DNA from: an uncultured Candidatus Saccharibacteria bacterium
Lineage (GTDB): Bacteria > Patescibacteriota > Minisyncoccia > Phycocordibacterales > UBA9973
Assembly (NCBI GenBank): GCA_964631935.1
Contig: CAZWAV010000001.1
Coordinates: forward strand, 211,460-275,459
DNA: 64,000 nucleotides
Direction of reading: 5' to 3'
In this document: positions 9,197-47,061 of the stretch, piece by piece
How the letters are laid out: every line of letters starts with the position of its first letter
How positions within the stretch are numbered: the first letter of the stretch is position 1
Translations under genes and position numbers: made by a program
Notes under the pieces: generated by a model
What the model was told of the DNA's origin: nothing
The model's database searches: none
The model's input: the letters and a program-made list of their open reading frames with translations, nothing else

Positions 9197-9757
9197 TTAA
9201 AGTGAATATTTTGATTCTTTTATCATGCCTTTAGTAAAATCCTTAAATCCTGGATCTTTTGTATCAATAGGAATACTACTTTCACAAAAAGCTCTTAGAT
9301 TATACTTACCATTATTTTCTGTTTTATATATCCAGGCCCAAAATATAGCATCTGGTTTATCGACAAAGAATAGATCAGCTTGCACTCCACCAGTCTCGTT
9401 ATCTTTTGCACTGAGAATAATAAATTTACTTTTATAATAAGATTTATCAAAATTATCTAATCCACACTTTTTACCGCTATCTAAATTACTCTTCTTTATT
9501 GCATATTCATCAACTCCATTATTCGTTCCATCTAGATATGCATTTAGTCCAGTACGGATATGTTTAATATATTCACTGTTATAAACTTCTTCTTCTGTCG
9601 GATTTTCACTAAATTCGGAATGTTTAGCAAGCTCTGTTTTTTGAGAATTAACCTTTGTTTCACTTGATCTGTTTTTTGACATTATAATGTAAATTGCAAT
9701 AATTACCAAAACTAATATGGCGATAACAATATAGAGTGTTTTAGTTTTTCTTTCCAT
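9197..9757 (-). CDS. Hypothetical membrane-anchored protein
   Basis: 186 aa; N-terminal TM (LYIVIAILVLVIIAIYIIM) then soluble domain. Confidence 0.5.
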   Translation of the reverse strand: MERKTKTLYIVIAILVLVIIAIYIIMSKNRSSETKVNSQKTELAKHSEFSENPTEEEVYNSEYIKHIRTGLNAYLDGTNNGVDEYAIKKSNLDSGKKCGLDNFDKSYYKSKFIILSAKDNETGGVQADLFFVDKPDAIFWAWIYKTENNGKYNLRAFCESSIPIDTKDPGFKDFTKGMIKESKYSL

Positions 9758-20053: not shown

Positions 20054-20455
20054 TTATTCAGTAGTCACACCATCAAACTCTGGGCTGTCAGCTTCGGCAG
20101 ATGCACGAGTTGCCCTGACTATATTATCTTTGTGATGAGGTGGGGTATACAAAGTGTAGAGTTTTAATGATTCAGTTTGTGAAGTATTTATTATATTGTG
20201 TTTGGATCCAGCAGGGACTATTACGGCATCTCCACCAATGACATCATATTGACTATCGTTAATAATGACCTTGGCTGTACCCTTTTCAAATCGAAAAAAC
20301 TGGTCACCTTTATCGTGAACCTCCATCCCTATTTCTTCTCCGATAGCAATAGACATTAAAACAAGTTGACAATTTTGAGCTGTATAAATAACCTTGCGAA
20401 AATTTTCATTTTCAATGGCCAATTCTTCAATGTTTCCCTTGTATCCTTTCTTCAT
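20054..20455 (-). CDS. Cupin-domain protein
   Basis: 133 aa; G(x)5H(x)H-like EEIGMEVHDKGDQFFRFEKG ... VPAGSKHNIIN two-motif cupin pattern. Confidence 0.65.
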   Translation of the reverse strand: MKKGYKGNIEELAIENENFRKVIYTAQNCQLVLMSIAIGEEIGMEVHDKGDQFFRFEKGTAKVIINDSQYDVIGGDAVIVPAGSKHNIINTSQTESLKLYTLYTPPHHKDNIVRATRASAEADSPEFDGVTTE

Positions 20456-22005: not shown

Positions 22006-23139
22006 CTAGTTAATGATTCTAGGGGTTAAGGGGCTTAATCTGGTCGTAACTTCGTAGTTAATAGTCTGTGTATTCTTGGCTATTTCCTCAGCTGTTATAG
22101 ACTCCCCTTTTTGAGTACCCAAAATCACCACTTCATCTTCAGGTTTTACTCCTTTTATATGGCTGACATCTACGACAAACATATTCATAGCCACACGGCC
22201 TAGAATTGGAGCACGTTTACCTTTTATAAGCACCTCGCCATTATTAGATAAAAGTCTACTCACCCCATTTGAATAACCCTGAGGAATAACAGCAATAGTC
22301 ATATTCTTTCTTGTTGTAAATGAAGCTCCGTAGCCGATAGATTCGCCCACCTGAAGTTCTTTCACTTGGGCAATGTGTGTGACAAATCGCACCACAGGTT
22401 TAAGTTCAATTTTCTTTTTCCAGATCTTTTGCAACTCTTCACTTGGCCACATACCATAGATGCCTATTCCTACACGCACAATATTATGCAAACCTTTCCA
22501 CTTTTCATACGCAAGCACACCAGAAGTTGCAGATATATGAGTCTTGATATTTTTGTATCCATTTTCTCTAAATAATTTTACTGCTTCTTCGTATGCTCTT
22601 ATCTGCTTTGATGCATAAGTAAAATCAGTCGTGTCTTCAATATTGGCAAAGTGCGCATATATTCCATCTATGCTCAAATTTTTCATCTTTTTTATTTCAT
22701 TAAGGAAAGTACTCACTTGTGATGGCAGCAATCCTTCGCGCCCCAAATGCGCATCTACACTAATATGGACTTTCTGTTTCACTCCTAGTTTACGAGCAGA
22801 TTCATTTATAAGTAATGCATGGTGTAAATCAAAGCAAGTTAAAATACATCCAAGCTTTATAGTACGAGGTATATCATTCTTGCATACATATCCGAGCAAC
22901 AGTATCGGCTTCTTAGTATAAGGTTTTATTTTTTCCAATTCTTCTACACTATTTATTTGAAAATAATCTACGTAAGGGTTAAGAATTTTGACTACTTCCA
23001 CATCACCGTGGCCATAGGCATTTGCTTTCACCACCCCGGCAATCTTCGTACCCTGTTTTACAATACGGCGAAACTGCTTGATATTGTGGATCAAATTTTT
23101 CTTAGAGAGTTCTATATATGAGAGGGGTAAGTTTTTCAT
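22006..23139 (-). CDS. alr: Alanine racemase
   Basis: AGVVKANAYGHGDVEV (PLP-lysine motif), 377 aa. Confidence 0.85.
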   Translation of the reverse strand: MKNLPLSYIELSKKNLIHNIKQFRRIVKQGTKIAGVVKANAYGHGDVEVVKILNPYVDYFQINSVEELEKIKPYTKKPILLLGYVCKNDIPRTIKLGCILTCFDLHHALLINESARKLGVKQKVHISVDAHLGREGLLPSQVSTFLNEIKKMKNLSIDGIYAHFANIEDTTDFTYASKQIRAYEEAVKLFRENGYKNIKTHISATSGVLAYEKWKGLHNIVRVGIGIYGMWPSEELQKIWKKKIELKPVVRFVTHIAQVKELQVGESIGYGASFTTRKNMTIAVIPQGYSNGVSRLLSNNGEVLIKGKRAPILGRVAMNMFVVDVSHIKGVKPEDEVVILGTQKGESITAEEIAKNTQTINYEVTTRLSPLTPRIIN

Positions 23140-23302
23140 TTATACGGCTTATTCTAGCATTTTATGTATATTTTGGTATACTAGCCGAGTAAATGCCGGA
23201 GTGGGTCAAAAACAAACTGCTTTGTTTTTGACCAGAACGAAAGTTCTGTGGGCCGCCACTTTAGGCACATAAACAGAGAAATACGCAGTATATTTCTCAT
23301 AT

Positions 23303-23384
23303 GCCGGAGTGGCGGAATTGGTATACGCGCGCGACTCAAAATCGCGTCTCGCAAGGGATGGAGGTTCAAGTCCTCTCTCCGGCA
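23303..23384 (+). tRNA. tRNA-Leu (anticodon CAA), type II with long variable arm
   Basis: Acceptor GCCGGAG/CTCCGGC+A, anticodon stem CGCGA/TCGCG, loop CTCAAAA, long variable arm, T-loop GGTTCAAGTCC. Confidence 0.85.
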
Positions 23385-23397
23385 CAAATCAAATTAT

Positions 23398-24096
23398 ATG
23401 AATTCACAAAAAATCGTTTTTTCTAAGAAAATTATTGAGAAAGATTGTGAGGACATATTTTATAAAGTACTAGAAAAATTCCCGGAGTTTAATAGTGTAT
23501 GTATTTTTGTTAAAAAAATACCATTCTATGGAATACAACATACTTTGCGATCATACGCACCACTACTTTCACTCGCAAATCCAAAACGAAGAAGAGTATA
23601 CCCTATAGTGATAAATAGCAACTCATATACTCCTATATTTTTTGAAAATCTTACCGAGGAAGAAAAGACAGGGGCAATGGCGCACGAATTTGGCCATACA
23701 CTTGAATATACACGCCTCAGTTCAGTAAAGATTGTTCGAATGACTTTACTATTTTTACTATCAGAAAAATTTGTAAAGAAGTTTGAAAAACGAGCCGATA
23801 TGATTGCGATAGAACGTGGATTTGCTAAAGAGTTACTGGCATTTAAAAAAAGAATTTTTAAAGAAGAAAACATAAAACTCTCTGGGTATAGGAGCTTTAT
23901 TTATATGGGTCCAGAAGAAGTTGAAAAGATATTAAAAAACGAAACGAATTTTGATCGCAAAAATCATTCTTATAATAAAATAGTATGGTACTCCTCATTT
24001 CATAAGTTGAGAAGCTTCTACACTTTCTTTCCAAGTATTTGGCAAATGATAATACTTATCTACTTTAAGAAAGTCCACAGGACAGGCCACTTTTAA
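23398..24096 (+). CDS. HExxH-motif protein (putative zinc metallopeptidase-like), hypothetical
   Basis: MAHEFGHTLEY motif; track ORF 23248..24096 starts inside/ahead of tRNA-Leu, so I place the start at Met 23398 (MNSQKIVF...). Confidence 0.5.
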   Translation: MNSQKIVFSKKIIEKDCEDIFYKVLEKFPEFNSVCIFVKKIPFYGIQHTLRSYAPLLSLANPKRRRVYPIVINSNSYTPIFFENLTEEEKTGAMAHEFGHTLEYTRLSSVKIVRMTLLFLLSEKFVKKFEKRADMIAIERGFAKELLAFKKRIFKEENIKLSGYRSFIYMGPEEVEKILKNETNFDRKNHSYNKIVWYSSFHKLRSFYTFFPSIWQMIILIYFKKVHRTGHF

Positions 24097-25118
24097 GATA
24101 CAAACTCTGGCTCGGCTTCAAGCTTAATACCGAACTTATCAAATATAATTTGAGTTATTTCATCACGAACACGCTCTACGTCAGAGCGAGTTGCTCCGCC
24201 ATTATTCACAAGTACCATCGCATTGTGTGAATAAGAAGATATTGTTCCAAAGTTTTTGCCCTTTAGTCCTGCTTGTTCAATAAGGAATCCTGATGGAACT
24301 TTCGTTTCTTTTTCATTTACCGGGAATACTACCATAGTCGGATATTGGTATTTCAATTCATCAGCGACAGGCTTAGGTACAATAGTATTTTTAAAGAACG
24401 ATCCGACACTTGGGATAACTTTCGGATCCGGTAATTTATCGCTACGAATTTCTATAATAGCTTCACGAATCTGGGAAAGGCTTGGGTTATTTATATTGTT
24501 CTCAATAAAATACCTTTTTACTCCTGGGTAGTTCGGTATGCGAGGTGTAGATTTTGATAGACGAAGAGTGATACTGGTAATTATATACCTGCCCTTGCTT
24601 TCATTTTTGAAGACACTATCACGATAAGAAAAACCACATTCACTATTTGTAATTTGGACCATGGATTGAGTAGATGTGTCATATGCTTCCAGTTGTATTA
24701 GTGTATCTTTTATTTCTTGTCCATACGCACCGACATTCTGCACCGGAGTTGCACCTACTGTCCCTGGAATTGCGGACATAGCTTCGATGCCGGAGAGATT
24801 CATAGCGACAGTACGTTCTACAATAGAATCCCAGTTCTCCCCTGCGCCAATTTTTATATCAGTATAGTCATCTGTGTCATTCACAATCTCAAAACCTGGG
24901 AAATTTATTTTTATTACTACACGTTCTAGTACTCCATCGGGGAATACCATATTCGATCCACCACCTAGAATAAAAATGGGTAAATTTTTCTCTTTGGCAA
25001 AATCATAAATTTCCTGAAGATATTTAATCTCTGAAACTTCAATAAAGTAGCGAAACTGACCTCCGACTTTGAGAGTACAGTAGTCTTTGATATCCACATT
25101 TTCTTGAATTTCTAACAT
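24093..25118 (-). CDS. murB: UDP-N-acetylenolpyruvoylglucosamine reductase
   Basis: FAD-binding N-terminus ...NLPIFILGGGSNMVFPDG..., 341 aa, C-terminal MurB domain. Confidence 0.85.
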   Translation of the reverse strand: MLEIQENVDIKDYCTLKVGGQFRYFIEVSEIKYLQEIYDFAKEKNLPIFILGGGSNMVFPDGVLERVVIKINFPGFEIVNDTDDYTDIKIGAGENWDSIVERTVAMNLSGIEAMSAIPGTVGATPVQNVGAYGQEIKDTLIQLEAYDTSTQSMVQITNSECGFSYRDSVFKNESKGRYIITSITLRLSKSTPRIPNYPGVKRYFIENNINNPSLSQIREAIIEIRSDKLPDPKVIPSVGSFFKNTIVPKPVADELKYQYPTMVVFPVNEKETKVPSGFLIEQAGLKGKNFGTISSYSHNAMVLVNNGGATRSDVERVRDEITQIIFDKFGIKLEAEPEFVS

Positions 25119-25127
25119 ATTGCCATT

Positions 25128-25143
25128 ATATCATATATGATAT
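25128..25143. promoter_or_regulatory. Perfect 16-bp palindrome ATATCATATATGATAT in the 38-bp murB<->HTH-murA divergent intergenic region (candidate operator)
   Basis: Seen directly; sits between the two start codons. Confidence 0.4.
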
Positions 25144-25156
25144 ATAATCCCAAAAT

Positions 25157-26671
25157 ATGAAACAAAGCGACCAGGAGAAGATAGGATTCTTTATTAAGGA
25201 ATTGCGTGAGAAAAGAGGCCTTACACAAGGTGCATTTGCCAAGGAATTAGGCACTTCACAGAGCGCTATAGCGCGCATGGAGAAGGGTGAGCAGAACTTC
25301 ACTACCGAGCTATTATCCAAGATAAGTACAGTCCTAGAGCATCAAATAGTCTCTATAAATAACAACAACTCTATAGACTTCCAAATCGTGGGTGGTAAAA
25401 AGCTACACGGTAGTATTACAACAAGTTTTTCTAAAAATGGCTCTGTTGGTCTTCTTTGCGCTACCCTACTTAATAAAGGTATGACAACACTTCACGGCAT
25501 CGCCCGAATTGAAGAAGTATATAGAGTTATAGAAATACTTGAGAGTATAGGTGTGAAAATCGTTTGGACAAATCAGAACACCGTAGAAGTAACTCCACCA
25601 AAAGTTTTCAAACTTAAAAATTTAAACGTAGAATCAGCAATCAGAACAAGATCAATAATAATGCTCATAGGTCCACTTATCCATTTACTTCCTTCATTCT
25701 CAATCCCTCACGCACAAGGTTGCAACTTGGGTAAGCGTACAATCTCTGCTCACAGATATGCCCTTGATGAATTGGGTGTAAAAATTAAAACTACAAATAC
25801 AACATACGACATAACTGTAAATAATTTAAAGCCTGCCGATATCGTAATGTATGAAGCTGGAGACACAGCTTGCGAGAACATACTCATGGCAGCAGCAAAA
25901 ATTGAAGGCAAGACAGTGATTGAATGTGCCAGTGGTAACTATATGGTGCAAGAGGTTTGTTTCTTCTTGCAGAAATTGGGAGTGAAAATCGAAGGCATCG
26001 GAACAGGCACTCTTATTGTGGAAGGAGTGAAAGATATAAATATGGCCGTTGAATATCACAACAGTGAAGATCCTATCGAATCTATGATGTTCATCTCGGC
26101 AGCTATTGCTACTGATTCAACTCTTACTATAAATCGCTGTCCTATAGACTTCCTTACTCTTGAACTATACAGACTAAAAAAGATGGGATTGAAATATAAA
26201 GTTTTGAAAAAATATGTATCAAAAAATGAAAAAACAAAACTCATAGATATAGAAATACTTCCGAGTATATTTAAAGCACCTTACGACAAAATTCACGCTA
26301 ATCCTTATCCAGGAATAAATATAGACAACCTTCCCTTCTTCGTCCCTATTGCAGTCCGAGCTACTGGTACAACTCTTATACACGATTGGTTTTACGAGAA
26401 TCGTGCTATATATGCAACTGAGCTCAACCGCCTTGGAGCCAATGTCACCCTGGCAGATCCACACCGCGTCTATATTACCGGAGGTACCCCCCTTACAGCA
26501 GCTCAAATAGTATGCCCTCCAGCGCTTAGACCATCTATGGTTATACTTATATCTATGATGGCTGCAGAAGGTACTTCAATACTTCGTAACGTCTATATGA
26601 TCAACCGCGGATATGAAGATGTCGCAGCTCGCTTGAACTCCATCGGTGCAGATATTACAATACTCAAGTAA
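25157..26671 (+). CDS. murA: UDP-N-acetylglucosamine 1-carboxyvinyltransferase with N-terminal XRE-type HTH domain (fusion)
   Basis: Residues ~10-60 LRE KRGLTQGAFAKELGTSQSAIARMEKGEQNFTTELLSKISTVL (XRE HTH); remainder is an EPT-fold MurA-like enzyme (VGGKKLHGSITTSFSKNGSVGLLCATLLNKG...); 504 aa. Confidence 0.8.
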   Translation: MKQSDQEKIGFFIKELREKRGLTQGAFAKELGTSQSAIARMEKGEQNFTTELLSKISTVLEHQIVSINNNNSIDFQIVGGKKLHGSITTSFSKNGSVGLLCATLLNKGMTTLHGIARIEEVYRVIEILESIGVKIVWTNQNTVEVTPPKVFKLKNLNVESAIRTRSIIMLIGPLIHLLPSFSIPHAQGCNLGKRTISAHRYALDELGVKIKTTNTTYDITVNNLKPADIVMYEAGDTACENILMAAAKIEGKTVIECASGNYMVQEVCFFLQKLGVKIEGIGTGTLIVEGVKDINMAVEYHNSEDPIESMMFISAAIATDSTLTINRCPIDFLTLELYRLKKMGLKYKVLKKYVSKNEKTKLIDIEILPSIFKAPYDKIHANPYPGINIDNLPFFVPIAVRATGTTLIHDWFYENRAIYATELNRLGANVTLADPHRVYITGGTPLTAAQIVCPPALRPSMVILISMMAAEGTSILRNVYMINRGYEDVAARLNSIGADITILK

Positions 26672-27252
26672 TGACAAAGCGAGAGCAACTTGATGAATTA
26701 AATACCTACTGGAAAGAAAATTGTACATGCGAATTAAAAAAGACTGCTACACAAGCAGTTTTTGGTGATGGAAATGCAAATGCTGAAGTAGTATTTATAG
26801 GCGAAGCTCCAGGTAAGAATGAAGATATCGAAGGTAGACCATTTGTCGGAGCAGGGGGTAAATTCTTAGCAGAGATGCTTGAGAATATAAAAATGAAACG
26901 TGAAGATATTTATATTACAAACATTGTAAAATACCGCCCACCGAACAATCGTGACCCAGAACCCGAAGAAAAGGAAGCCTGCAATGAATGGCTTATAAAT
27001 GAACTAAAAATCATTTCGCCGAAATTAATCGTATTCCTGGGGCGCCACTCAATGGGAAGATTTTTCCCTGGTGAAAAGATATCAGATATTCATGGAAAAC
27101 TTTTAATTAAAAATGTTCCAGAGCTAGGAAAGAAACAAGCATTCCTTCCCCTTTATCACCCAGCGGCAGCACTCTATAATGGTGGCATGCGCGAAACGCT
27201 CATTAAAGATTTTAATAAGATTCCAAAAGCATTGGATAAAATAAAAGAATAG
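26671..27252 (+). CDS. Uracil-DNA glycosylase, family 4
   Basis: [27 protein letters not shown] + HP..AALY motifs of family-4 UDG. Confidence 0.85.
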
Positions 27253-31930: not shown

Positions 31931-32515
31931 CTATTTTGTATGTACTCCGTGAGTCATCCGATATTCCATGATCTGACTAAAGATAACCCCGAAGAAACAG
32001 ATGGCAATATACCCAAGCATAGCTTGCTGGTAAGATATTGGAATACTTTTTAGCATGCCCAATACGAAAGATATAAGCCAGGAAATTAAAGATACAGCCC
32101 CCATCGCAAAAGATATTTTTCTAAATTTAACATACTTATGGTGAACATTATTATCTGTAAAATCTATTTTCTTTAATGCTGGATGTATAAACCGCCAAAA
32201 GGCATAGCCATTCAATATTATAATACCTACAATAGAAATCTTGACTAGAAATTTAGTTGAACTTGCATACTTTATAGGATTTGATAGAAATAATCCGAGA
32301 CCACTAAGAGATATGAATAGCAGACTTGCCCATACAATAACAGAAAGAACTTTTAGTGTTTTGCTTTCTATTGCATTGATTTTTTTATTCTTTAGATAAA
32401 CATTAAATAATATATCTGATATAAGAGCCGCACCCATACCAAATATAACAGCTAAGACATGAATAATAAGGGATATAATTTTATATTCGCCAAAAAAAGC
32501 TATTGTATCTTCCAT
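31931..32515 (-). CDS. Polytopic membrane protein, hypothetical
   Basis: 194 aa, ~5 hydrophobic helices. Confidence 0.55.
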   Translation of the reverse strand: MEDTIAFFGEYKIISLIIHVLAVIFGMGAALISDILFNVYLKNKKINAIESKTLKVLSVIVWASLLFISLSGLGLFLSNPIKYASSTKFLVKISIVGIIILNGYAFWRFIHPALKKIDFTDNNVHHKYVKFRKISFAMGAVSLISWLISFVLGMLKSIPISYQQAMLGYIAICFFGVIFSQIMEYRMTHGVHTK

Positions 32516-44974: not shown

Positions 44975-46018
44975 CTATGAGATAAAGCTAGTAACAAACA
45001 TAGCCTTATTTATATAGATAAGGCATAGCATAATTACAAGAGTAAGGACTCCATACATTATATTCTTTGGGTGTCGGCGTCGGAATTCTATTACTGTCAT
45101 AGAAAGCATGGCCACAATAACAACCCACATAATCACATGATATATACGGTCAGCATATGAAGGCAACATAAACATGAGCTTTTCGTTCCATGAGGCATAA
45201 TGAACAGGTTGATCTTTTGGTATTAGGGGTTTTTCTTCTGTGGTAGTATTCTTTACTGCAACAAATTCTTTTGTTTCAGTTATTGTCTCTAAATTTCTAC
45301 TAGGAGAAACTTCTGCACCTTTAACTGAAGGAGTTGAGGCTATCGCTATTGGATTTTCTATTTGTGGTTTTACTACTTTTATTTCTTCTGTCTTTGGTTT
45401 TATTTCAGTTACAACATTGGTCTCTACTTTTGGTTCTTCTTTTCTTGTAATTGCAGGTGAACCGAACATCTGGACTACATAAGTAGTCGGATGTCCTTGA
45501 TAACTTGCATCTACAGTAGCGATACCAATTTCAGAAAAATGACTATTCAAAATATTTGCTTTGTGGGTTGGAGAATTGAGCCATGCTTTCTCTACGTCCA
45601 CTGATTCAGTGAAATCTATGGCCAAATTCTCTCCAGCGTAAACAAAAGAATACCCAGCCTCATCAAACCAATGCCATGGGGTCAAACCAGCAGGACTTGT
45701 ATGGGCAAAATAGCCAAGGCTAGCCATATTTTCAGCTTTTAGGCGGGCTGCTGTATCAAGGACTGAGTTACGGGTTAGAGCTTTTTCGCTATTTGATGTA
45801 CGAGCATCATTTGTAAGATCAACAAGTACAGCTGGTAGCACTGTAGCTGTCATGTTTGTATTTTTTATATAAAGGCTAGTACTGGCTGAAATAGATAGTA
45901 TTACTATAGCAACTACTGTAATAGATATAATAGAAGCCTCACGAAAGAAATGTGGCTTGTAGTCATTGTGTTTATGCGGAATAAATGCGTGTTTAAAGGC
46001 TTTAAAAACTTTATTCAT
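44975..46018 (-). CDS. CAP/SCP-domain membrane protein
   Basis: N-terminal TM, CAP-like core (YFAHTSPAG...GENLA...HKANILNSHFSEIGIA), C-terminal TM segment; 347 aa. Confidence 0.55.
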   Translation of the reverse strand: MNKVFKAFKHAFIPHKHNDYKPHFFREASIISITVVAIVILSISASTSLYIKNTNMTATVLPAVLVDLTNDARTSNSEKALTRNSVLDTAARLKAENMASLGYFAHTSPAGLTPWHWFDEAGYSFVYAGENLAIDFTESVDVEKAWLNSPTHKANILNSHFSEIGIATVDASYQGHPTTYVVQMFGSPAITRKEEPKVETNVVTEIKPKTEEIKVVKPQIENPIAIASTPSVKGAEVSPSRNLETITETKEFVAVKNTTTEEKPLIPKDQPVHYASWNEKLMFMLPSYADRIYHVIMWVVIVAMLSMTVIEFRRRHPKNIMYGVLTLVIMLCLIYINKAMFVTSFIS

Positions 46019-46056: not shown

Positions 46057-47061
46057 CTAAGACCTATTTAAGGCAAGCCTAATAATATGGTCGAGGAATT
46101 CAGGCATTGTCGCCCCTACTGCGTTTAAAGCTTTTGGGGTAAGAGACTCATCTGTAAGGCCAGGAAGAGTATTTACTTCAAGAGCATATATTCCCCTCCT
46201 TGGGTGGACTATAAAATCACTACGAGAATAGTGGCTAAGGTTGAGCCCAGTATGAATAAGGGAAGCAAGTCTTTCTAGTTCTTCTTTCTCTTCTCTTGTG
46301 AAATTACCAGGACAAATCTCCTCTGAGATTCCAGAATACTTTGCGTCATAATCAAAAAAAGTTTTTGTATTTGGAATTCGAATCTCAATTGGTGGTAAAG
46401 TATAAAAATCTTTTCCTCGCAAACCTTCGACGACAGCAACTGTAGCTTCCTTGCCATCTATCATCTCTTCGACAATAATATTCATATTACTTTCTATGCC
46501 AATCTTAAGAGCATCCACAAGTTCACTAAATGTCTTACATATTTTAACCCCAAAAGATGAACCGCTTGATTGAGGTTTAACCACCCAAGGTGGAGCAAAC
46601 TTCTGCCAAACAAGCTTCGCTCTTTTTTGAGCAAGTTCTTCTATTAAAGGATATGGGTTTTTTTCATCTGCTGTAAATACAACATGGTTCGCAGTTTTTA
46701 TACCTAGTCTAGAAAATTGTTCTTTAGCTAGAGCCTTATTGTAACCTAAGGCTGAAGCAAATGCTCCACTTCCGGTATATGGAATATTCCATTGATCTAG
46801 CATCTGTTGGAGTTTTCCATCTTCTCCAAAATCTCCATGGAGAGCATTAAATATAACATCGACAGACTTAGAGACTTGTTCTAAATCCGTGGGCCTACCA
46901 TTTATATGCCAAGCGCCATCTTTATCTATTAGTATATCTATGGTTTTATACTTTTCATTCATCTTATCACTTCGCAGATGAGAAAGAACATTACCACCAG
47001 TAGCAAGTGATACATCGTATTCAGAACTTATTCCTCCACGAATGACGCCAACTCTAATCAT
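46057..47061 (-). CDS. ddl: D-alanine--D-alanine ligase
   Basis: MIRVGVIRGGISSEYDVSLATG N-terminus; ATP-grasp core; 334 aa. Confidence 0.85.
   Translation of the reverse strand: MIRVGVIRGGISSEYDVSLATGGNVLSHLRSDKMNEKYKTIDILIDKDGAWHINGRPTDLEQVSKSVDVIFNALHGDFGEDGKLQQMLDQWNIPYTGSGAFASALGYNKALAKEQFSRLGIKTANHVVFTADEKNPYPLIEELAQKRAKLVWQKFAPPWVVKPQSSGSSFGVKICKTFSELVDALKIGIESNMNIIVEEMIDGKEATVAVVEGLRGKDFYTLPPIEIRIPNTKTFFDYDAKYSGISEEICPGNFTREEKEELERLASLIHTGLNLSHYSRSDFIVHPRRGIYALEVNTLPGLTDESLTPKALNAVGATMPEFLDHIIRLALNRS

Follow-up and report, generated by a model that had tools for sequence, protein, structure and literature searches.

The 64,000-nucleotide stretch of DNA analysed here, referred to as the window, comes from an uncultured Candidatus Saccharibacteria bacterium (contig CAZWAV010000001.1, positions 211,460 to 275,459) and encodes a MurA enzyme fused to an XRE-type helix-turn-helix (HTH) domain. 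It appears probable that the product of this HTH-murA gene is bifunctional: an active MurA whose HTH domain would bind a palindrome, ATATCA-N4-TGATAT, in the spacer between murA and the divergently transcribed murB, and would thereby repress both genes. In other words, the palindrome is a putative conserved operator, and the fused HTH is the domain predicted to bind it. An earlier interpretation made from the letters of this DNA alone (the sequence-only reading) had proposed that the fused HTH is an autoregulator acting at the palindrome. Comparison among relatives supports this proposal through the conservation of the site, its linkage to the fusion, its dependence on the HTH, and its co-variation with it.

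The fusion gene (25157..26671, + strand) encodes 504 aa in one uninterrupted open reading frame (ORF) with no in-frame stop. An XRE/Cro-C1 HTH domain occupies aa 13-60 (25193..25336, +), and the MurA or enolpyruvyl-transferase (EPT) domain follows at aa 75-502 (25379..26662, +; NCBIfam PRK09369). The former matched the Pfam families HTH_3 (PF01381; E 1.2e-13, 51.3 bits against a cut-off of 23) and HTH_31 (38.3 bits against a cut-off of 27), while EPSP_synthase (PF00275) spans aa 79-490 with an E of 2.1e-38. These matches bear out the earlier description of an N-terminal XRE HTH followed by an EPT-fold remainder in a single ORF. An AlphaFold2 model built from a 60-sequence alignment had a mean predicted local distance difference test (pLDDT) score of 93.3 and displayed two well-folded domains joined by a linker, including a complete EPT fold. 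The HTH domain is modelled as four helices (aa 5-19, 24-31, 35-42, and 50-60), of which the second and third (aa 24-31 and 35-42) are helices 2 and 3 of the HTH. The recognition helix, QSAIARME, occupies aa 35-42 and is encoded at 25259-25282 (+). The linker (aa 61-73, 25337..25375, +) contains the run NNNN and is flexible as judged by its low pLDDT, which falls below 50 at aa 67-70 and averages 58 in the block of aa 61-70. An internal start that would yield a free enzyme was ruled out, as there is no Met close to the domain boundary.

Is the EPT domain of the fusion still an enzyme? The fusion passed the cut-off of the MurA model PRK09369 (313.9 bits against 297, NCBIfam), and the closest solved relatives of its EPT domain are all MurA structures, for example 5ujs (E 2.4e-50). 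It belongs to a divergent MurA subfamily with ~33% identity to studied MurAs, in which a PPALRP motif is found where D369-L370-R371 is expected. An alignment to the E. coli MurA showed that the equivalents of K22, N23, R91, C115, R120, D305, R371, and R397 are all kept; in the reference sequence used, the expected residues fell at the expected numbers. The catalytic Cys of the fusion is Cys189, whose codon lies at 25721-25723 (+). The loss of the D369 equivalent is common to the whole subfamily, including members that lack the HTH. No second EPT gene is present within the 64-kb window. The EPT domain of the fusion is thus likely to be enzymatically active, as far as its sequence and predicted fold allow a judgment.

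The fusion is widespread. PF01381 and PF00275 were both present in 120 of the 120 listed homologues, which share 75-95% identity and are labelled by their sources as MurA from Patescibacteria or Paceibacterota. A genome scan with one genome per species revealed 445 stretches that encode relatives, and 80 of these, from Paceibacterota, Nomurabacteria, Parcubacteria or Minisyncoccia, were analysed as loci. Among representatives of clusters at 50% identity, full-length HTH-EPT fusions were found down to 32% identity, and a cluster of 246 fusion sequences came from cultured Nonomuraea (Actinobacteria), where NCBI names the proteins 'helix-turn-helix domain-containing protein' or MurA. When metagenomes were scanned for the recognition-helix peptide TSQSA[IV][AN]R[IM], at least 569 relatives were obtained, and the 80 metagenome contigs fetched have a guanine-plus-cytosine (GC) content of 29% to 68%. 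The motif TSQSA(I/V)(A/N)R(I/M)E.G.QN is the best-conserved part of the divergent fusions. Some members of this MurA subfamily have no HTH (P0122-P0124 are examples, with 51-57% identity), and because of them the alternative to the fusion is the absence of an HTH and not a separate HTH gene. Neither of the two outcomes that would have refuted the sequence-only reading was seen: orthologues carry either the fusion or no HTH at all, with no separate small HTH gene, and a sequencing error is at odds with the presence of the fusion in hundreds of independent assemblies. Judged from these comparisons, the fusion is genuine and ancient, and it is uncommon among MurAs overall, yet the standard form in a large Patescibacteria clade. 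The earlier description of the arrangement as rare therefore holds for MurAs as a whole but not within that clade, and the fusion is also found in Nonomuraea.

The gene divergent from the fusion, murB (24093..25118, - strand), encodes a UDP-N-acetylenolpyruvoylglucosamine reductase of 341 aa that matched the Pfam families FAD_binding_4 and MurB_C and passed the cut-off of PRK00046 (344 bits against 277, NCBIfam). Its start codon is separated from that of murA by a 38-bp spacer (25119..25156), exactly as the sequence-only reading had it, and both predicted promoters and the putative operator are inside this spacer. The palindrome that had been noted there, the 16-bp ATATCATATATGATAT at 25128-25143, is present but is only the core of a longer one, since the full perfect palindrome, TATATCATATATGATATA, is 18 bp long (25127..25144). 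It consists of the arms ATATCA and TGATAT with four bases between them, and the centres of the arms are 10 bp apart. The predicted murA promoter (25120..25148, +) has a -35 TTGCCA (25120-25125), a 17-nt spacer, and a -10 TATAAT (25143-25148), and scored 11/12 in a consensus scan. The predicted murB promoter (25125..25153, -) has a -35 TTGGGA (25153-25148), a 17-nt spacer, and an extended -10 TGATATAAT (25133-25125) in which TG precedes TATAAT, and scored 10/12. The palindrome spans the spacer of both predicted promoters and overlaps both -10 regions.

The gap between the -10 and the ATG is only 8 nt for murA and 6 nt for murB. A Shine-Dalgarno-like motif was found for only 4 of the 46 window genes (all genes of at least 120 aa), and a TATAAT-like box lies 12-17 nt ahead of the ATG in at least eight window genes (for example those at 9197..9757, 20054..20455, 31931..32515, 44975..46018, and 46057..47061). 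Because of the short gaps, the rarity of Shine-Dalgarno motifs, and the same geometry in other window genes, the murA and murB transcripts are probably leaderless or nearly so, with their starts placed from the predicted promoters. The same features suggest widespread leaderless transcription in this genome.

The window by itself is weak evidence for an operator. The 18-mer has a single match in the 64-kb window at up to three mismatches, but shuffled sequences are expected to give 0.22 matches, and 22 of 100 shuffles gave at least one, which in a 36% GC genome makes a lone match unremarkable. A second operator site that would point to a wider regulon was absent from the window at the same threshold, and a match to the arms at 22535, with one mismatch, falls within alr and was taken as chance. 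A hairpin or terminator reading of the palindrome was also set aside: no terminator-like site was detected, and the sequence was regarded as A/T only.

The decisive evidence against a chance match came from conservation across species. A motif, TTGCAAT-TATATCATATATGA(T/G)ATA-TAAT, heads the fusion-containing transcription unit in every one of the 80 genome loci with enough upstream sequence. In an alignment of 78 loci (77 related loci and the window), 18 site positions are near-invariant and exceed the -35 and -10 hexamers in conservation. At the site, the mean pairwise identity is 0.956, compared to 0.37 in the flanks and 0.41 at the third positions of codons in the HTH-coding region next to it. 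The exact arms occur essentially once per related locus and once in the window. Furthermore, the site stays with the fusion when murB does not. About 18 loci without murB upstream still carry the full palindrome. In 15 of these, ARAGORN placed a co-directional tRNA-Leu(CAA) gene upstream, immediately next to the fusion in about half of the 15 and 0.2-1.3 kb away in the others. Because this tRNA gene is co-directional, the left arm is not needed there as the -10 of a divergent promoter. Likewise, where other genes intervene between the site and the fusion, namely a NUDIX gene and a nucleotidyltransferase gene at locus L011 and a kinase-like gene at L078, the site is still found at the head of the operon. 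These patterns indicate strong purifying selection on the site and a linkage to the fusion gene, not to murB. This cross-species conservation, together with the sites found in GC-rich genomes, rules out that the palindrome arose by chance in AT-rich DNA.

The surroundings of the site in these loci show some further features. The gene pair at L011 (1724-2986) encodes a NUDIX hydrolase and an NTP_transferase, and the same pair precedes a fusion that lacks catalytic residues at L082 (2735-3996), a hint that genes for nucleotide-sugar supply have become part of the same regulated unit at these two loci. A DnaA-box-like 9-mer, TTATCCACA, or a one-mismatch variant of it, lies 6-23 nt upstream of the operator in loci without a murB neighbour (L016, L033, L038, L045, L047, L049, L054, L057, L058, L062, L068, and L074); its background frequency is ~0.46 per kb on both strands, and none is present in the window's own spacer. 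A similar ATATCCACA, which lies 28 nt ahead of the operator where murB is the neighbour, was set aside as murB coding sequence (V-D-I codons; ~25090-25098 in the window). At L007, L009, L010, L015, L021, L024, L030, and L070, short elements whose ends are inverted (...TTCTAACGGGACAAGTATTGC... / ...ACTTGTCCCGTAG...) have been inserted, either on the flanks of the operator or between it and the ATG, and the leader becomes 100-250 nt long. These elements resemble small mobile or structured repeats.

The site is also present far outside this group of relatives. In a diverse set of 76 metagenome loci with enough upstream sequence, 300 nt upstream of the fusion were searched, and ATATCA-N4-TGATAT was found at no more than one mismatch in 43 of the 76 loci (22 kb of upstream sequence), compared to eight matches in the remaining 512 kb. 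A left arm with at least five of six matches stands beside the start-proximal TGATAT in 60% of cases, compared to 5.7% for control occurrences of TGATAT. The distance from the site to the ATG is usually 12-13 nt, and the divergent neighbour is often serine hydroxymethyltransferase, 130-180 nt away, instead of murB. Across these lineages the arms are conserved and the central four bases are variable, a pattern that fits a dimer touching two half-sites 10 bp apart. Similar sites were found in contigs of 55-68% GC. In Nonomuraea (70% GC), the site reads CATCTCA-TATG-TGAGATG; it is 13 nt ahead of the ATG and shares bases with the end of the preceding gene, which is co-directional. The operator was not found upstream of HTH-less subfamily members at any of the five loci checked, where the best match had at least four mismatches in 12 positions.

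The Nonomuraea locus L081 (Nonomuraea sp. NEAU-A123, JAHFZZ010000002.1) comes from a cultured organism. Its HTH-MurA is 51% identical and has intact catalytic residues, and the operator is present. The neighbouring genes encode AMP-binding and formyltransferase/enoyl-CoA-hydratase proteins and a phage-type integrase. Horizontal transfer is a possible origin of this fusion, which may be an additional copy of murA or a gene for resistance.

Does the site change together with the protein proposed to bind it? Symmetric double substitutions that preserve the palindrome were observed. For example, ATCTCA...TGAGAT arms are found as ATCTCATATATGAGAT in L039, L045, and L050, and the same arms occur in L132 and Nonomuraea; another such substitution, TCACATGTGA, is present in L079 and L011. 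Furthermore, a G at position 14 of the site, on the right arm, occurs in 29 of the 78 loci of the close set. A recognition helix with SQSSxPR is paired with G14 in 21 of 22 loci, and a helix with SQSAxAR is paired with T14 in 47 of 55 (Fisher 2e-11, a statistic that ignores shared ancestry). A stricter rule that ties the ATCTCA/TGAGAT operator to an Arg in the helix (ERG) was tried and failed in the diverse set. The co-variation of helix and operator is thus supportive of the proposed pairing but not decisive.

Further support for a regulatory role comes from paralogues that appear to have lost catalysis. Seven divergent fusions (P0127, P0129, P0137, P0139, P0141, P0214, and P0269) lack C115, R120, and other catalytic residues, and their invariant positions cluster in the HTH. 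At L083, L085, and L089, such a dead fusion is divergent from a canonical murA that has no HTH and keeps its catalytic residues. Downstream of the canonical murA lies murB or a mur ligase gene, and downstream of the dead fusion lie ddl or mur ligase genes. The exact arms ATATCA-N4-TGATAT are present at L083 and L089 (centre TATA) and at L086 (centre GATA). A two-mismatch variant, TATAACATATATGCTATA, is present at L085, and a 15/18 match lies upstream of the nucleotidyltransferase-fusion operon at L082. In total, three of the five dead-paralogue loci carry the operator and the other two carry near-matches. That dead paralogues keep the HTH and the operator beside peptidoglycan genes is an argument for a functional, regulatory pairing of HTH and operator and for a regulatory role of the fused protein.

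How would an HTH-MurA act on these promoters? In the proposed mechanism, the XRE HTH, on a flexible tether of roughly 12 residues, would bind ATATCA-N4-TGATAT. With one helical turn between the half-sites, two copies would probably be bound on the same face of the DNA. The bound protein would exclude RNA polymerase from the murA and murB promoters; both would be blocked because the operator fills the -35/-10 spacer of each within the 38 bp. As a result, MurA would repress its own synthesis and that of MurB, a negative autoregulation of the first two committed steps of peptidoglycan synthesis. It is also conceivable, as a speculative addition, that the ligand state of the enzyme tunes DNA binding. 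UDP-N-acetylglucosamine (UDP-GlcNAc), phosphoenolpyruvate (PEP), and the feedback inhibitor UDP-N-acetylmuramic acid (UDP-MurNAc) drive the known open/closed change of MurA, and the same ligands could act here. That the dead paralogues still have the EPT fold is a weak hint in this direction. A more ambitious form of the proposal, which is tentative and judged rather doubtful, is that a one-protein feedback loop gates HTH pairing by enzyme state and that this scaffold was repeatedly turned into dead, nucleotide-sugar-sensing repressors of mur and ddl genes. Wall-synthesis flux through the first committed steps would then directly set the transcription of murA and murB. If this were true, it would define a new family of peptidoglycan-precursor regulators, spread horizontally as far as actinomycetes, and such control would operate in organisms with very few regulators.

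Several observations weigh against a bifunctional, self-repressing MurA. The fusion scored 303.5 bits on the strict equivalog model TIGR01072 (NCBIfam), under its 392.7 cut-off, and for this reason enzyme activity is graded as likely and below proven; the D369 equivalent is not conserved (A or P, alignment-dependent). MurA is normally monomeric, whereas the binding proposed here is dimeric. About 40% of the diverse loci are without a good palindrome, and in some divergent lineages (for example L123, L140, L151, and L162) only the right arm and the -10 are kept. Eight loci break the helix-operator rule, and the association ignores phylogeny. Lastly, each arm is the TGATAT of an extended -10 on its own strand, and in murB-linked loci, including the window, promoter function alone could explain much of the symmetry. 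Could the palindrome then be only a compact bidirectional promoter, built of mirrored extended -10s (TGATATAAT), with an HTH that binds elsewhere or has a role unrelated to DNA? A leaderless-style TATAAT 12-14 nt before the ATG is indeed common in this genome, and the lineages that keep only the right arm keep it with TATAAT. However, this explanation is unlikely. The left arm is kept where there is no divergent gene to serve, as in the Paceibacteria loci with tRNA-Leu and, with co-directional genes upstream, at L086 and in Nonomuraea. G14 spoils the -10 in its register, yet it is mirrored by a C in the left arm in some loci. Furthermore, conservation is higher at the site than at the true hexamers, the site and the recognition helix co-vary, and HTH-less relatives, which need promoters too, lack the site.

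The symmetry could also serve a separate transcription factor, in which case the fused HTH would target another site or nothing. The survey covered the 64-kb window and flanks of a few kb, and another XRE protein elsewhere in these genomes could be such a factor. This possibility is quite improbable, however, because the site accompanies the fusion through different phyla, GC contents, and gene orders and vanishes without the HTH, and because changes in the operator are tracked by changes in the helix. Patescibacteria genomes are small, and a second dedicated factor kept in all these lineages and in Nonomuraea would be less economical. A different objection concerns the enzyme: the EPT domain of the window protein might no longer be catalytic and might instead be the sensor or dimerisation domain of a pure regulator. 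Dead HTH-EPT paralogues do exist elsewhere, and the TIGR01072 score and the replacement of D369 point the same way. The objection is very unlikely to be right, given that the eight key residues listed above are kept as they are in HTH-less subfamily members and that the PRK09369 cut-off is passed. In addition, dead paralogues always adjoin a canonical murA, whereas no second EPT gene was detected nearby in the window or in 80 related loci. An artefact of assembly, frameshift or start-site choice, with the HTH in reality a separate small gene, has in its favour only the general possibility that attends a single metagenome-like sequence. It has next to no chance of being correct, because the same uninterrupted architecture is seen in hundreds of independent assemblies (NCBI, JGI, ENA, and Logan) and in cultured Nonomuraea, because there is no in-frame stop, and because AlphaFold2 shows two folded domains and a linker. 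On this comparison of assemblies, the artefact is excluded. A MurA that represses its own promoter and that of murB through its fused HTH thus appears to be the most probable explanation of the site and of the fusion.

The sub-lineage represented by L123, L140, L151, and L162 has the helix TSQSA(V/I)NRIEKGKQ. Three of these loci share TTTATGC-N7-GTGATATAAT in place of the left arm, and the fourth, L123, has CGTATTC instead. The operator may have been changed or lost in this sub-lineage.

Two neighbours of the fusion and murB were also noted in the window. A uracil-DNA glycosylase gene of the family-4 type (26671..27252, +; Pfam UDG, E 8e-34) begins with an ATG that overlaps the murA stop codon (TAATG, 26669-26673). 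It is probably co-transcribed with HTH-murA and so under the same control. On the other side of murB, a listed ORF of 282 aa (23248..24096, +) overlaps a tRNA-Leu(CAA) at 23303-23385, and because of this overlap its true start must be later. It had no Pfam match and has a HEFGH motif, which is like that of HExxH zinc proteases. The same tRNA-Leu(CAA) gene immediately precedes HTH-murA at several loci without murB.

MurA, which fosfomycin targets, is the gatekeeper of the peptidoglycan pathway, and control of its level is known mainly for a few model species, where it is post-translational. A MurA that carries a repressor domain and has an operator of its own would solve the same problem differently and with great economy. 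This would also be the standard solution among Paceibacteria and their relatives, a large uncultivated group in which very little is known of gene regulation. Because the protein and its putative operator form a small, conserved, and sharply defined pair, they can be tested in vitro or in E. coli without culturing the source organism, and Nonomuraea provides a cultured carrier for work in vivo. Dead paralogues beside canonical murA form a natural series from enzyme to pure regulator. For Patescibacteria, the site also offers a defined promoter/operator model, together with evidence that leaderless promoters can stand back to back in only 38 bp.

How does HTH-MurA compare to known systems? Canonical MurA is controlled by UDP-MurNAc feedback inhibition and, in Firmicutes, by ClpCP/ReoM-dependent proteolysis. 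HTH-MurA belongs to the same enzyme family, with the same catalytic residues and genetic linkage to murB. However, canonical MurA is a protein of ~420 aa with no DNA-binding domain and with post-translational control, whereas HTH-MurA has a fused HTH and a proposed transcriptional self-control. In full-text searches of the literature, no account was found of either an HTH-MurA fusion or a MurA that regulates by binding DNA. On the side of the HTH, the nearest solved relatives include small autoregulatory XRE proteins, namely the restriction-modification controller proteins C.AhdI and C.Esp1396I as well as HipB, SinR, and PezA. Regulators of this type bind as dimers to half-sites about one helical turn apart, and HTH-MurA shares with them the HTH family and a palindromic, here putative, operator overlapping its own promoter. 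They differ in being small stand-alone proteins of 70-160 aa with a dimer interface in or near the HTH, whereas the HTH of HTH-MurA is tethered to a 430-aa enzyme in which no dimerisation element was identified.

Closer parallels are found among proteins that combine an enzyme, or an enzyme fold, with a DNA-binding domain. BzdR-type regulators consist of an XRE HTH and a shikimate-kinase-like domain that senses benzoyl-CoA, and PRK08154 (NCBIfam) matched the HTH region of the fusion with an E of 6e-7. In both, an XRE HTH at the N-terminus is joined by a linker to a C-terminal domain that descends from a central biosynthetic enzyme. The dead HTH-EPT paralogues resemble the BzdR outcome, in which the enzyme fold is reused as a regulatory domain. 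Unlike BzdR, the window protein has an EPT domain in place of a P-loop kinase, and this domain appears to be still active. BirA (biotin ligase and bio repressor), PutA (proline dehydrogenase and put repressor), and NadR are bifunctional enzyme-repressors, or 'trigger enzymes'. HTH-MurA is like them in that a pathway enzyme and a DNA-binding domain are present in one polypeptide, which is predicted here to act on promoters of its own pathway. Proteins of this type often act on a divergent promoter pair (putA/putP, bioA/bioBFCD), coupling the level or state of the enzyme to transcription. The differences are that HTH-MurA has an XRE HTH and not a winged helix or ribbon-helix-helix, that the enzyme is an EPT, and that the pathway is that of peptidoglycan; the corepressor logic of BirA, in which biotinyl-AMP drives dimerisation, has no demonstrated counterpart in HTH-MurA. 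By analogy, BirA, PutA, and NadR would be the functionally nearest known systems for HTH-MurA and BzdR-type regulators for its dead paralogues. HTH-MurA would thus be a variant of the enzyme-repressor kind, whose architecture is already present in public databases under generic names.

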